The translations under genes and the position numbers were made by a program. A stretch of 24,000 bases of DNA from Desulfobacterales bacterium (GTDB taxonomy: Bacteria; Desulfobacterota; Desulfobacteria; Desulfobacterales; Desulfobacteraceae): positions 13,082 through 37,081 of the forward strand of contig JANNUH010000006.1 in the NCBI GenBank assembly GCA_031395015.1. The letters are read 5' to 3'. The notes under the pieces were generated by a model. The model was not told the origin of the DNA. It was given only the letters and a program-made list of their open reading frames with translations, and made no database searches. Of the stretch, positions 3,094 through 11,129 are shown in pieces; positions within the stretch are counted from its first letter, which is position 1; the number at the start of each line of letters is the position of its first letter.

Positions 3094-5052
3094 CTATCCT
3101 GCAAAAACATCGGGAGAAACAATGCAGCCGTGGGCCGCTTTTAATGCCAGAAGCTCTTTTTTCTGCTCTGCAAGGATTCTGGGCAGGGTTTCGGGTAGCC
3201 TTTTTTCCTTGGCATAGGCAGTTTCCTGAAGCTCAATCCGTTTGATGATATTGTCCAGATAAAGGGAGAACTGTTTCACATAAAGGTCTCTGGGATAGTC
3301 TTTATTGATGATATCTTTAAACAAGAATTTCAAATCTTCATATTTCGGGAGATTGCCGATGGGCGTGGACAGAAACCCGATTTCGTCATGGGCATATCTT
3401 TCAAGCCAGGAAAGCCAGACTTTTACATCCCGTTTTTCACCGAGAAGGCTGGAAGAATTCCCGCCCCTGGCCTGATCCGTCAGAAAATAATTGAGTCCGG
3501 CCAGGACGGGTTTATATTCGGGTTTGATCTTACTGCTGCCGAAGAATTTAAACTGGACCGCCATATAATCGGCCAGGGCGCCTGGAATGAACTGGCCATT
3601 GGCCCAGGGAGCCCTTTTGATTCCGGTGGCACCGACTTCCGTGGCTGTTGCGGCTGAAACAATACAGGCGCCGATGACGACACCGGCATCGGAGGTCTTG
3701 GCCACCCAGACCGGGGGCATGGTATCGGCATCCCTTCCGCTGTAGGTAAAAACACGGGTAATGACCCCTTCCGGGTTATCCGCTTCTCTGGAATAATTTT
3801 CAAGGGAGGTTGAGCTTACGGTACAGCGGGAATTGGGATGGGACAAGGGGATGGGTTTGCCCGCGTCATCGGTTTTGCCTTCATGCCAGTCACCTTGAAA
3901 ATTAATGCCTTTTTTCGGAGGGGTTTCATTGTTTCCCACCCAGTGGGGCACCTTGTTTTCATCAATGAGGACATTGGACCAGATCACTTCATGGCCGGGC
4001 TGCCGCAGGACTTTCATGAGCAGGGGATCTCCCTCCTGGTTGACATCCTCCACAATGCCGAAGATCCCGCATTCCGGGTTGATGCTCCGGATGGACCCGT
4101 CTTTGGCGATCCACATCTGGGCCAGGTCATCGCCGATGAACACATTGCCTGCCATGGCCGTGGTGGTTTTTCCGCACCCGCTGGGAGCAGCGCCTGCAAA
4201 CCAGGTGATGCGGCCACCTGGGCCATGAATCCCGGTGATAAACATATGCTCGGACAATTCATTGCCCGGATTGTCATAAACAGCCTTATCCACGGCAAAT
4301 CTGTGATTTCCCTTTTTCAAGAGCAGGGTATTGCCGGCATAGGTGCATTTCCAGGCATAGGTGGTCCGAAATTTACGATCCATGAAAACCCTTGCATCGG
4401 GAAGATCTTCGGTGCGGTTCAGACCTTCGCTGTGAACATTGGTGAAAAAATGTCCCAGGCTGGTGACTTCTTTATCAAAGGCTTCAAAGGCATTTCTATA
4501 AAGAAGTTCCGCACTGTGGGCCACATAGGCGGAGCTGGTGATTTCAAGGGCCGGGTTTGAGGCGGGAGATCCCACAGGACCCCTCATATAAAAGCCGATG
4601 ATCATGGTTTTGTCTTTCATGATATCCGTCAGATTGGATTTGACCTGCAGGAGGGCCGTGGGTCTGTCCATCCGGTTGGCCAGGGAAGAGACCTCATCTT
4701 CAGGGTTTGCAATATAAAATGTCCGGTCAACGATCCTGCCCTGTTCCCTGGCAAGGTCATAATGGATGGTGTGGCCGTCCATGGCAAGGGGTCTTTCTTC
4801 TTTTTTTTCAAGGGCAAGGGTTCTGATGAACTGTTTGTCGCCCAGGGACCCGGTGTTTATAAAAACCGAGCCGGGATTGCAAACAACAATAGAATTGGCA
4901 ATTCTTTTCAGGACTTCAGGATGTCTGATCCGAAGAAGCCGGCTCAGATTTTCTTTGTCCATATATTTTTTAAATATGTCCGCAGCGCTTTTTTCAGAAT
5001 CCACTTTTCCAAGTTCACTGATGATATCCATATCTTTTTCTGTAATCTGCAT
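3094..5052 (-). CDS. pckG: Phosphoenolpyruvate carboxykinase (GTP-dependent family)
   Basis: 660-aa ORF in the track. Family motifs: P-loop AAPSGCGKTT (cf. FPSACGKTN), IGDDLAQMW (cf. GDDIAWM), INPECGIFG and HPNSRCT. Start moved to ATG 5052 (MQITEK...) because GGAGGG (5063-5068 on the minus strand) lies 10 nt upstream. ATG 5076 is the alternative start. Confidence 0.85.
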   Translation of the reverse strand: MQITEKDMDIISELGKVDSEKSAADIFKKYMDKENLSRLLRIRHPEVLKRIANSIVVCNPGSVFINTGSLGDKQFIRTLALEKKEERPLAMDGHTIHYDLAREQGRIVDRTFYIANPEDEVSSLANRMDRPTALLQVKSNLTDIMKDKTMIIGFYMRGPVGSPASNPALEITSSAYVAHSAELLYRNAFEAFDKEVTSLGHFFTNVHSEGLNRTEDLPDARVFMDRKFRTTYAWKCTYAGNTLLLKKGNHRFAVDKAVYDNPGNELSEHMFITGIHGPGGRITWFAGAAPSGCGKTTTAMAGNVFIGDDLAQMWIAKDGSIRSINPECGIFGIVEDVNQEGDPLLMKVLRQPGHEVIWSNVLIDENKVPHWVGNNETPPKKGINFQGDWHEGKTDDAGKPIPLSHPNSRCTVSSTSLENYSREADNPEGVITRVFTYSGRDADTMPPVWVAKTSDAGVVIGACIVSAATATEVGATGIKRAPWANGQFIPGALADYMAVQFKFFGSSKIKPEYKPVLAGLNYFLTDQARGGNSSSLLGEKRDVKVWLSWLERYAHDEIGFLSTPIGNLPKYEDLKFLFKDIINKDYPRDLYVKQFSLYLDNIIKRIELQETAYAKEKRLPETLPRILAEQKKELLALKAAHGCIVSPDVFAG

Positions 5053-7937: not shown

Positions 7938-10379
7938 TCAGAAATTGCTGATCTGCATTTCGTAAAAAAGCATGCCGTTCAAGTTTTTTTCAACTTCTTT
8001 AATGCGGCATCGTAAGGCTGAATTGGAAAGGGTAAGCGAGGTATTTGGAGAAAAAATCCGGGTCTCTGATTCAGCCTTTCTCCCGATTTTGACTTCCGCA
8101 AGGGCCTCTGTCCTGCCGGAAAATTCGATCAGTAGCTTTTTTTCATCGGACAGGATTTGGCTATGGGCTTCAAATTCTTTGATCCGGCTGCTTTTCCGGG
8201 AAATTTCAGAGACGATCTGATCCTGGCGGTCAAATCCCTTATTAATTTTTTCTTCGGCTTTTTTTGCATTGATCCGGATCTCCTTGATCGTATTGGCGAT
8301 TTTCTGGTATGCGGCCATATCCCTGGAAGCCTTCAGTTCGCTCAGTTTTTTTTCCAGATCTTTGAGGTCAAGCTGTGCCCGGTCCTGGATATAGGCATAT
8401 TTGGAAATCAACCCATGCAGATCCTGATCTTCTTTTTCAAGTTTTTCAACCTCGGTTTTGAGTCCCAGGATTTCATTATCGTCGGTCATCAGCAGGGAAT
8501 CGATTCTTTCCGTTAACAGGCGGGTGTGATTATCCACACCCACCGTCAGGGTGGAGGGTTTTGAATTGGGACTTCCGATATTGCCGGCACGGATACCCAT
8601 TTTTGCAGAAATTTTAGAATTGAGGATGGAACCTCTTTCATTGATGCAGGCCCCGCTTAAATAAATTATCGAGTCAATGATTTCCTTTTGAACAATGAGG
8701 TCGCCAAAGGCGTTTATTTTTGAATTGTGAATATATTTGGCCTGAATCGATCCTTTGACCTTAATCAGCTCGGCATCAACAATGCCGAAGGAGACATTCA
8801 GATCTCCTGAAATATCAACTTCCGCACCATGAATTTCTTTGGCTGTCAATGAGGCGCATTTGACCTTGAATCCTCGTTTAACCGCGCCATCAATAATCAC
8901 ATTGCCGTTGAAATTGACATTGCCGGTTTCAAATCCGAGATCCCCTTTGATCTGAAATTCCGCGCAGACAGAGACAGTTCCAAGGGCATCCAGATGGGGT
9001 TGCCCTGATGCTGCGGCATAAATCCTTGCCCCGTCTTCAGACAACCGTGTCCCAATGCCCGATGAAAAAGCAAGATCAACCGCCTCTTCCACCGGGATTT
9101 TTTTCCCGAATACGTCAATCCCGTAGGCCCCCGGTTCCGGGTGAATTTTGGTGGCAAGTAAAGCCCCGTCTTTGATATAGGGGATCTCTCCCCGGTCCTT
9201 GAAATCAATGCTGCCGTCCTCGTTCACTTTGCCTGCATGAAGAAAACGGGTTGGGAAATAATAGCAGATATCGGCATTTTTTGGATATTTCGGCTCTCTT
9301 GCCTTTGCAACGACAAAGGGTTCATCTCCCGGTATGGCCCTGAAAAGCCAGGATTCAATCTCATGATCCTCTTTAATCCCGGTGATGATTTTGTTTTTTT
9401 CAAGGAATTGCCGGACATGGGAAGGATTCAGCGAATGGGTATCCTTTGTTTTAATCTTCAAAAAGGCCTCGGAATTGTCTTCTGAAAGCCTGACCTCAAA
9501 AAAAACATCCTGAATGATTTCTTTTATTCTTCCCCGGCTCTGGGGTTCGGGCGGTTTATCTTTCAGAAGAAGGGCAAACAGGAGCACCAGGATCTTGTCC
9601 ATCAGCTCCTTGACTTCAGGGTTCAATAGGGATGGGTCAAGAAGGGTCCTGGATGAAACCGGGGTCAGGGTGATATCGGGTGATAAGGCCACGACTTCAA
9701 GGATCTGTTTGATTTCATTTTTTATGGTGAGAAATTGAGAGCCAAAGGCATCCGGAGAAAAATCAATATTTCTTTTGGTCAGGATATCTTTCAGCAGCAA
9801 TGGTTTATCTGCATAAAGAGAACCGCCTGCAGAGCGAATCCTGGATTCAAGAATCCGGATTTCTTTTTTCTTTTGTTCAAGCTGGGCCAGATTCAGGGCA
9901 TCTTTTTTCTTTAAGCTGCTTGCCATCTCAAACAATTGCCTGTTCTGGTGCTGGGTCACCCGTTTAAAATGATTCTGTTTTTGGACCATATCATACTGCC
10001 GGCAGCACTGGTCCACCTGATATAAAAGATCCGGATCATCAAAGGGAAGGGTGAGGCAGGCGTGTATCCCGGCCAGATTGACGGCATTGACAAGGGTTTC
10101 GAGTTCAGCCGCATCGGCAATCAGAATTCTTTGCGTGTTGGGCGCAATCTCCCTTGCCTTTTTCAGGATCTCATCCCCTTTCATTTCCGGCATCATATAG
10201 TTCGAGATGATCAGCGTGTAAGGGACCGGCTTTGAAGCCTCAAGGGCTTCAAGGGCATCGGAAGAGATTGAAAAGCATTCCACCCCGTATCCTTCGGCGG
10301 ATAAGACGGATTTCATCCTGTTTTTCAAGGTGGTGGTGGATTCAACGATAAGAATTTTATGGGAAGTGTCGTTTAAAAT
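7938..10379 (-). CDS. FapA-family (DUF342) protein with an N-terminal degenerate (pseudo-)receiver domain and a C-terminal coiled coil; 5' boundary uncertain
   Basis: The 796-aa track ORF starts at TTG 10328. The DUF342/FapA beta-helix signature is clear: FETGNVNFNGNVIIDGAVKRGFKVKCASLTAKEIHGAEVDISGDLNV...SKISAKMGIRAGNIGSPNSKPSTLTVGVD. A long heptad-rich tail follows. The N-terminus is receiver-like, but its beta-1 strand (HKILIVESTTT) lies upstream of the first canonical start. I therefore extend to ATT 10379, which has AAGGA (10392-10388) 8 nt upstream. Stop TGA at 7938-7940. Confidence 0.8.
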   Translation of the reverse strand: MLNDTSHKILIVESTTTLKNRMKSVLSAEGYGVECFSISSDALEALEASKPVPYTLIISNYMMPEMKGDEILKKAREIAPNTQRILIADAAELETLVNAVNLAGIHACLTLPFDDPDLLYQVDQCCRQYDMVQKQNHFKRVTQHQNRQLFEMASSLKKKDALNLAQLEQKKKEIRILESRIRSAGGSLYADKPLLLKDILTKRNIDFSPDAFGSQFLTIKNEIKQILEVVALSPDITLTPVSSRTLLDPSLLNPEVKELMDKILVLLFALLLKDKPPEPQSRGRIKEIIQDVFFEVRLSEDNSEAFLKIKTKDTHSLNPSHVRQFLEKNKIITGIKEDHEIESWLFRAIPGDEPFVVAKAREPKYPKNADICYYFPTRFLHAGKVNEDGSIDFKDRGEIPYIKDGALLATKIHPEPGAYGIDVFGKKIPVEEAVDLAFSSGIGTRLSEDGARIYAAASGQPHLDALGTVSVCAEFQIKGDLGFETGNVNFNGNVIIDGAVKRGFKVKCASLTAKEIHGAEVDISGDLNVSFGIVDAELIKVKGSIQAKYIHNSKINAFGDLIVQKEIIDSIIYLSGACINERGSILNSKISAKMGIRAGNIGSPNSKPSTLTVGVDNHTRLLTERIDSLLMTDDNEILGLKTEVEKLEKEDQDLHGLISKYAYIQDRAQLDLKDLEKKLSELKASRDMAAYQKIANTIKEIRINAKKAEEKINKGFDRQDQIVSEISRKSSRIKEFEAHSQILSDEKKLLIEFSGRTEALAEVKIGRKAESETRIFSPNTSLTLSNSALRCRIKEVEKNLNGMLFYEMQISNF

Positions 10380-10391
10380 GGCTTTTATCCT

Positions 10392-11129
10392 TTATCTGTT
10401 CAGGTCTGATGAATCAGTTGGTTGCGGCATCATAAACCCGTATTGAGTGGAGATTTCCCGGAATTGTTCAAAGAGTTCGGCAATGATGGCCGCATAAAGC
10501 GAATTAAGCCTTCCCTTTTCCGTCATATTTTTTTGTTTCAAAAGGGCTTGTATTTCATTGATATAATTTTTGTTTTCAAACCCTTTTTCAAGGACGGCAT
10601 TCAAGTCGGTGATCTTTTGATCTTTATGAAGAAGGGCCTTCTGGTGAATTTCCGTACTCTTTTTAAGGTCAATATTGAGCTTATATAATTTTGCATTCTG
10701 TTCTTTGGCCAGGGCAAACAGCCTATGGCTTTCCATGATGAGTTCATACTGCCCAAGCCCGGCTTTGACGGATTCGACCAGAACTTTATTATCCCATGGT
10801 TTTGAAATATATCGGTGGATGGAGCCTTTATTGACCGATTCGGTCACTGCATCCGCATCTGCATAACCAGTGATGAGAAACCGGATGGTGTCGGGTGAGA
10901 TTTCCTTTGCCTTTTGAAGAAAAACAGAGCCCATCATTTCCGGCATCCGCTGATCCGAAAGAATCATGGAAAAAGGATGAGATGCTTTTTCCATGCAGTC
11001 AAGGGCTTCTCTGCCCGACGACACATAGACGTATTTCACACCCATCCCCCGCATCAGGCGGCCCAGTGCTTTGCCGATCTGTTCTTCATCATCCACAATC
11101 AATACGGTGTGGTCAAAGGGTTCCGACAT
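10392..11129 (-). CDS. Response regulator: canonical receiver plus a C-terminal region of about 110 aa, coiled-coil-like, with no recognised output domain
   Basis: The track ORF starts at TTG 11156. ATG 11129 (MSEPFDHTVLIVDDEE) is preferred because GGAGG lies 6 nt upstream. Receiver residues are intact: DD, acceptor D in MILSDQRMPEMMG, T in FLITGY, K in YISKPW. The C-terminal part (LAKEQNAKLYKLNIDLKKSTEIHQKALLHKDQKITDLNAVLEK...) is heptad-like, with no HTH or enzymatic motif that I recognise. Confidence 0.9.
   Translation of the reverse strand: MSEPFDHTVLIVDDEEQIGKALGRLMRGMGVKYVYVSSGREALDCMEKASHPFSMILSDQRMPEMMGSVFLQKAKEISPDTIRFLITGYADADAVTESVNKGSIHRYISKPWDNKVLVESVKAGLGQYELIMESHRLFALAKEQNAKLYKLNIDLKKSTEIHQKALLHKDQKITDLNAVLEKGFENKNYINEIQALLKQKNMTEKGRLNSLYAAIIAELFEQFREISTQYGFMMPQPTDSSDLNR

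Follow-up and report, generated by a model that had tools for sequence, protein, structure and literature searches.

The gene junction and its proteins

The DNA analysed here (the window) is a stretch of 24,000 nucleotides (nt) from contig JANNUH010000006.1, positions 13,082 to 37,081 of the forward strand, in the assembly GCA_031395015.1 of a Desulfobacterales bacterium. This assembly, which we label G000, is a draft metagenome-assembled genome (MAG) of 4.3 Mb in 157 contigs; it is 95% complete and the window is its contig 19. On the minus strand of the window a response-regulator (RR) gene is followed closely by a gene for a large FapA-like protein, and our subject is the start of this second gene, which appears to be an ATT codon lying just past the stop of the first. 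The features to which we refer below, all on the minus strand, are the following.

10392..11129, minus strand: RR gene, a receiver (REC) domain plus coiled coil, 245 amino acids (aa) from the ATG at 11129 (open reading frame (ORF) list, translation, Pfam)
10395..10427, minus strand: deletion scar and retained tail of a lost middle paralogue, with the junction near CCGCAAC (pairwise DNA alignments, ORF maps of relatives)
10388..10394, minus strand: TAAAGGA, the upstream stop overlapping the Shine-Dalgarno (SD) sequence AAGGA (direct reading)
10377..10379, minus strand: proposed ATT (AUU) start of the pseudo-receiver/FapA gene (aligned with ATT, ATC or ATA in orthologues and with an outgroup ATG in the same column)
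10344..10358, minus strand: K-I-L-I-V codons of receiver strand beta-1, 5' of every canonical start (AlphaFold2 strand and synonymous turnover)
10326..10328, minus strand: TTG, the first canonical start, rejected (column not conserved, no SD, costs beta-1)
7938..10379, minus strand: gene for pseudo-receiver, linker, FapA_N, FapA beta-solenoid and coiled coil, 813 aa from the ATT (Pfam)

Read on the minus strand, the junction is CTG AAC AGA TAA AGG ATA AAA GCC ATT TTA AAC GAC ACT TCC CAT AAA ATT CTT ATC GTT GAA TCC ACC ACC ACC TTG. The RR gene ends with the TAA at 10394-10392; AAGGA occupies 10392-10388, and the ATT at 10379-10377 lies 8 nt past AAGGA and 12 nt past the stop. Positions 11129, 10379 and 10328 all leave a remainder of 2 on division by 3 and so belong to one common frame, in which translation continued beyond the TAA gives R I K A I L N D T S H K I L I V E S T T T L K N R M K. 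Direct reading finds no in-frame ATG, GTG or TTG between the TAA and the TTG at 10328. A previous reading of the sequence alone (hereafter the sequence-only reading) had described the coordinates, the common frame with its single TAA, the SD spacing and the missing canonical start before TTG 10328, all of them correctly. It had also taken HKILIVESTTT for the beta-1 segment of a receiver, which agrees with both the beginning of the Pfam match and a strand in the AlphaFold2 model. A run of 21 codons without a canonical start is not improbable in one genome alone; the arrangement goes beyond chance because it recurs in about 20 orthologues.

The RR gene matches the Pfam family Response_reg (E-value 2e-16), and its final nine or so codons do not belong to the RR sequence. 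The downstream ORF is intact through 813 codons with every domain present (FapA_N, 3e-33; FapA, 5e-32; Response_reg, 8e-12), and its scores of 115 bits for PF20250 (curated cut-off 27) and 112 bits for PF03961 (curated cut-off 31) place the protein in the FapA/DUF342 family. The Response_reg match (PF00072) covers profile positions 1-109 and begins at residue 13 of the translation taken from stop to stop, in the ILIVE segment. An AlphaFold2 model computed from the ATT with a 24-sequence alignment has a (beta-alpha)5 fold of five strands and five helices (pLDDT 91, pTM 0.87), in which beta-1 (residues 8-12 from the ATT) is the central strand and residues 1-4 form a disordered tail. The TTG at 10328 is residue 18 in this numbering, and according to the model a start there would delete beta-1 and the beginning of helix 1. 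At the end of beta-3 (columns 58-62 of our alignment A1, window positions approximately 10200-10214) the phospho-acceptor site reads LIISNYMMP, with N at the acceptor position; the orthologues have S, N, G or A there, D occurs in G051 only, and the acidic pair of beta-1 reads E-S. The absence of the phospho-acceptor Asp from the end of beta-3 marks the domain as a pseudo-receiver, and, to judge from their sequences, nearly all members of the orthologue group appear to be pseudo-receivers.

Conservation of a probable ATT, ATC or ATA start

Our comparison drew on the N-terminal region of the orthologue in 22 species-level genomes of this genus, in two outgroups (G314, of another genus, and G039, of another family) and in three metagenome contigs; the genomes are MAGs of uncultured organisms. 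The nearest named relative is the Desulfobacterales MAG RIFOXYA12_FULL_46_15, the sole true relative to emerge from a scan of genome contigs. An order-wide search returned just two orthologues outside the genus; only seven candidates were scored per genome, so that absence elsewhere is not established. An exact-sequence look-up of the RR and FapA-like proteins in the protein collection gave no match to either.

In 20 of the 22 genus orthologues the codon aligned with our ATT is ATT (7), ATC (7) or ATA (6), and in these 20 genomes there is no in-frame ATG, GTG or TTG from the nearest upstream stop to beta-1. The codon sits seven or eight codons (five in G018) 5' of the K-I-L-V-V-E strand, and in 18 of the 20 it is preceded, at 5-9 nt, by an SD of the form AAGGA, GAGGA or AAGG. 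Across the 21 orthologues with such a codon, TAAAGG(A/G) at -15 to -9 is the most conserved non-coding feature. In a MAFFT alignment these Ile codons share their column with the ATG of both outgroups, and all the paralogues that we examined begin with ATG. Two additional metagenome contigs have ATC and ATT at the start. On a maximum-likelihood tree, the base of which is poorly resolved, the ATT/ATC/ATA start is retained along long branches; at least nine start-codon changes are demanded in all, none of which gives ATG at the aligned codon inside the genus. One genome, G057, has an additional in-frame ATG two codons upstream of it.

That beta-1 is translated follows from the way in which its codons have changed. 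Alignment columns 9-16 keep K-I-L-V-V-E-S-T through a turnover of synonymous codons (Ile as ATT 7, ATC 7 and ATA 9; Leu as CTT 10 and CTG 6; Val as GTG 13, GTT 3, GTA 2 and GTC 2; Thr in this region as four different codons among the orthologues). No such conservation of amino acids is seen in the in-frame codons that separate the stop from the ATT/ATC/ATA, among which G055 has a second TAA.

The infC gene of the same genome served as an inferred control (locus L057, G000:C47:3618-6875, approximately 1270-1290 in locus coordinates). It has no convincing canonical start; AGGAGG is followed after 6 nt by ATA and then by ISTKRGKQDQVNVNRGIRSSQVRVIG, so that infC here probably starts at ATA, at its expected N-terminus. 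This suggests that the organism uses starts of this kind in the classical case.

We consider it likely, with a probability of about 0.85, that the FapA-like gene is intact and begins at the ATT, behind a good ribosome-binding site; initiation at AUU was among the options of the sequence-only reading, and the orthologues lend it strong support. Several points weigh against it or temper it. Initiation at AUU is read from the comparison of orthologues, in each of which the ATT, ATC or ATA was our own choice and then served as the anchor for position counts, so that the invariance of A and T at the anchored codon is partly a matter of construction. In G016 (L037) the motif scan finds no SD and by eye there is only GGGG before the ATA, while in G054 (L047) a single nt separates the SD from the ATC, and the spacing is better for a CTG two codons further downstream. 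No third-position change to G is seen; if third-position changes number as few as six or so, chance alone would give this result in approximately 9% of cases, and the suggestion of selection against ATG at the start is accordingly a weak one. Finally, excess IF3 is reported to lower reinitiation in Escherichia coli (PMC2268962), so that any coupling to upstream termination need not bypass the proofreading of the start codon.

The best surviving alternative, which we nonetheless judge very unlikely, is that translation begins at the first canonical codon, TTG 10328 or ATG 10316, and yields a receiver-like domain without beta-1. These are the only canonical starts available, and the collection's gene call for this locus indeed opens MKSVL..., that is, at ATG 10316, the choice of the public gene callers. 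Neither codon is conserved, however: among the orthologues the TTG column holds TTG 8, TTA 8, CTG 4, CTC 1 and CTT 1, and the ATG column Met 8 and Ile 12. Neither is preceded by a purine-rich SD, and both starts would sacrifice the central strand of the receiver-like fold, the codons of which, 5' of the TTG, are under selection at the protein level. The gene calls of the orthologues, moreover, open at inconsistent internal sites (MVESTT, MLTAQ, MKSVL), as is typical when a non-canonical start has been missed. Those calls that we saw without an ATG at the aligned position all start inside or after beta-1, and the databases therefore hold truncated receiver domains.

The public calls P0003-P0010 take as the start either a GTG inside beta-1 or an ATG in helix 1. 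We considered the GTG as a candidate in its own right and rejected it; it is found in 13 orthologues, but it lacks an SD and is not conserved (it is ATC here).

A start at some other non-canonical codon nearby is slightly less credible again. The ATA at 10388-10386 and the ATT at 10355-10353 are both in frame and near-cognate; but the former falls within the SD region and was found in only two of the orthologues examined, the latter lacks an SD and would likewise cut beta-1 short, and only the codon at 10379 is aligned with the outgroup ATG.

The shared frame and the origin of the junction

The common frame of the two genes has a simple explanation. From the T of the TAA to the A of the ATT there are 15 nt, and the frame is shared because the TAA overlaps AAGGA and is followed by an 8-nt spacer. 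Among the 21 orthologues with ATT, ATC or ATA at the aligned position the upstream gene is in frame in 14 (11 with a single stop, three with two stops) and out of frame in seven; it is out of frame in one metagenome contig as well. The out-of-frame cases have spacers of 6, 7 or 9 nt or another upstream gene. The frame relation is thus a by-product, and the orthologues do not conserve a read-through fusion.

Low-level read-through of the TAA, or some other recoding that yields a functional RR-FapA fusion, was a further option of the sequence-only reading, and the single TAA within one frame, here and in 11 of the 21 orthologues, is what speaks for it. We regard it as highly improbable. The out-of-frame upstream genes and the double in-frame stops contradict it, and the SD spacing accounts for the common frame. 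The upstream partner, furthermore, varies, being an RR in this genome and a paralogue of 970 aa in close relatives, and among the 21 orthologues neither the frame relation nor the peptide encoded between the stop and the ATT/ATC/ATA is conserved, as programmed read-through would require.

Doubled or displaced versions of the motif occur in a few relatives. In L036 (G066:C10), CTGAAxCTxTAA appears twice, 15 nt apart, at 45 nt before the ATA (CTGAATCTTTAA AACCAGTGC CTGTAAAGGA); the upstream gene ends at the first TAA, and TAAAGGA is retained as the SD. G047 and G003 also retain TAAAGGA after a different real stop.

The immediate history of the junction can be read from the relatives. In the closest of them (G010, G041, G021 and G006), and in most others, the gene order is RR (approximately 245 aa), a REC-FapA paralogue (966-988 aa) and the FapA-like gene, and the middle paralogue ends ...NPDNPKQL(I/V)HQTLNx-TAA. 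The RR of our genome is 76% identical to that of G010 over its whole length up to ...GF-MPQ, after which, in the pairwise DNA alignment against G010, its DNA switches to the last approximately 30 nt of the middle gene; the junction is CAACTGATTCATCAGA-CCTGAACAGATAAAGGA here, as compared with CAACTGGTTCATCAAACCCTGAACATATAAAGGA. No orthologue of the middle gene is found anywhere in this 95%-complete assembly. The switch, together with this absence, shows that a deletion of approximately 2.9 kb removed the middle gene. Its breakpoint lies close to a shared CCNCAA(A)C, and the old TAA/SD/ATT junction was kept. The retained tail, the last approximately nine codons' worth of paralogue DNA, is partly read in a shifted frame (compare L021, G010:C19, and L022, G006:C76). 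The tail also contains two compensating 1-nt indels, which we considered as a sign of selection for this stop; the idea was rejected, for all three frames stop within approximately 30 nt.

By this comparison the RR and FapA-like ORFs were never one gene. That they are a single gene recently split, a pseudogene, or the product of an assembly error at the TAA would fit the in-frame arrangement and the draft state of a MAG in 157 contigs, but it is as improbable as read-through: 12 other assemblies of the genus and one metagenome contig have the same TAA-AGG-A junction, RRs that stand alone are orthologous to this one over its full length, and no relative has a fused gene. The sequence-only reading had raised both the split (or nonsense-mutated) gene and the sequencing error; the former is contradicted, since the junction was inherited from a different upstream gene that has been deleted here, and the latter looks very unlikely with the same TAA in independent assemblies. 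It had also advised aligning the orthologous loci, and in that alignment the TAA recurs and the starts align at ATT/ATC/ATA, and nowhere are the genes fused.

The middle gene has been lost otherwise in G051, G016 and G054, where an ATT, ATC or ATA start stands behind the RR at gaps of 26, 4 and 52 nt. Two further loci without the middle gene, G064 (L039, G064:C33) and a Desulfobacula MAG (L061, JGI Ga0376277_0018412, 3490-3510), have an ATG start, with junctions that read GGAGAATGAC-ATG and an ATGA overlap, the latter with the RR gene in L061. In these two the deletions apparently fused the start region of the middle gene to this gene and so captured the junction between the RR and the start of the middle gene.

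Initiation, coupling and comparison with known systems

The junction contains no terminator that we could find and its promoter-like matches are at chance level; it has no Rfam match and its RNA fold is unremarkable (z-score -0.72). The lack of a terminator, an Rfam element or an unusual fold argues that the two genes are co-transcribed. In the mechanism that we propose, the FapA-like gene would thus share a transcript with the RR gene, the AAGGA 8 nt upstream would direct initiation at ATT 10379-10377, and the initiator tRNA would read this codon as a near-cognate start. The ancestor would have had ATG at this codon, later exchanged for the weak start that was then kept genus-wide, and the single in-frame TAA, inherited through the approximately 2.9-kb deletion, would have no function of its own. 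A low output, possibly sensitive to IF3, is a likely consequence; in Escherichia coli AUA, AUC and AUU initiate at 1-2% of the level of AUG (bioRxiv 10.1101/063800).

With a stop that overlaps the SD and leaves only 12 nt to the ATT, part of the initiation is probably due to ribosomes that have just terminated on the RR gene. The 12-nt gap without a terminator is as short as is expected of a coupled pair, and at a UAA-GGU-AUU junction in E. coli about half of the initiation is reinitiation and the rest de novo (PMC3592434). Reinitiation drops steeply with distance (PMC10666635). Of the 21 orthologues with ATT, ATC or ATA at the aligned position, 16 have a stop-to-start gap of 11-15 nt; the extremes are 4 and 52 nt. 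The codon type persists while the gap varies, and it is therefore the weak start that is the conserved feature and not the coupling. Termination-reinitiation coupling, another option of the sequence-only reading, is thus plausible and compatible with the junction as it stands, but it is not conserved among the orthologues.

It is possible, though we would sooner doubt it than assert it, that the weak start has been selected as a dosage device, which would keep the third protein of an RR / REC-FapA / pseudo-REC-FapA module sub-stoichiometric and tie its synthesis to the level of IF3 or to upstream translation. Wherever the gene lies behind the middle paralogue in the sampled genomes of the genus, it has ATT, ATC or ATA at the aligned codon. 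The presence of ATG in the lineages where a deletion put the gene behind the RR's own start junction (G064 and the Desulfobacula MAG) fits a start codon tuned to its upstream context. The outgroup G039 has kept the middle paralogue and starts with ATG.

The closest parallels are the AUU starts of infC and pcnB in E. coli, which are likewise weak near-cognate codons (of the AUU/AUC/AUA kind) behind a normal SD, conserved in relatives; the infC start is also only a few nt past an upstream stop (PMC3592434; bioRxiv 10.1101/063800). The present gene differs in that it encodes a signalling or scaffold protein and not a translation factor and has no apparent autoregulatory logic, and in that the conservation is within one genus, with ATG in the outgroups, and the case for it is a comparative one. 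The GTC start of sigR in Streptomyces, repressed by IF3 (PMC5472188), and the ATC and CTG starts proven by proteomics in Deinococcus deserti (PMC2830850) are similar in being non-canonical starts of regulatory or ordinary genes, missed by gene finders and believed to set or regulate the level of expression. These involve other codons and have direct experimental evidence, whereas ours is comparative. Gene pairs with a gap of +9 to +12 nt that contains the SD have been described by Huber et al. 2023 (PMC10666635) in the context of coupling, and our junction resembles them in its 12-nt gap, its SD overlapping the stop, its genes on the same strand and its lack of a terminator; such pairs are, however, argued to be mostly independently initiated, and here the codon is kept at gaps of anything between 4 and 52 nt.

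The start described here would thus be one of the infC/pcnB kind on a new gene family, the pseudo-receiver/FapA proteins, a solid case but in kind an ordinary one. Bacterial genes known to have kept an AUU, AUC or AUA start for long form a short list, which a signalling or scaffold gene would now join. The clear ancestral ATG and the natural variants (ATG-capturing deletions and varied gaps) offer material for asking whether such starts set the stoichiometry of an operon. The locus also illustrates that recoding need not be invoked whenever two adjacent genes are separated by a single in-frame stop, since SD spacing and a deletion can by themselves produce this arrangement.

Upstream of the RR gene the relatives differ as well. 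In G010 (L021, G010:C19, oriented 1033-2870) approximately 1.8 kb with a 199-aa open frame lies between a hybrid kinase gene and the RR; this stretch is missing here, and the kinase and RR genes overlap instead.

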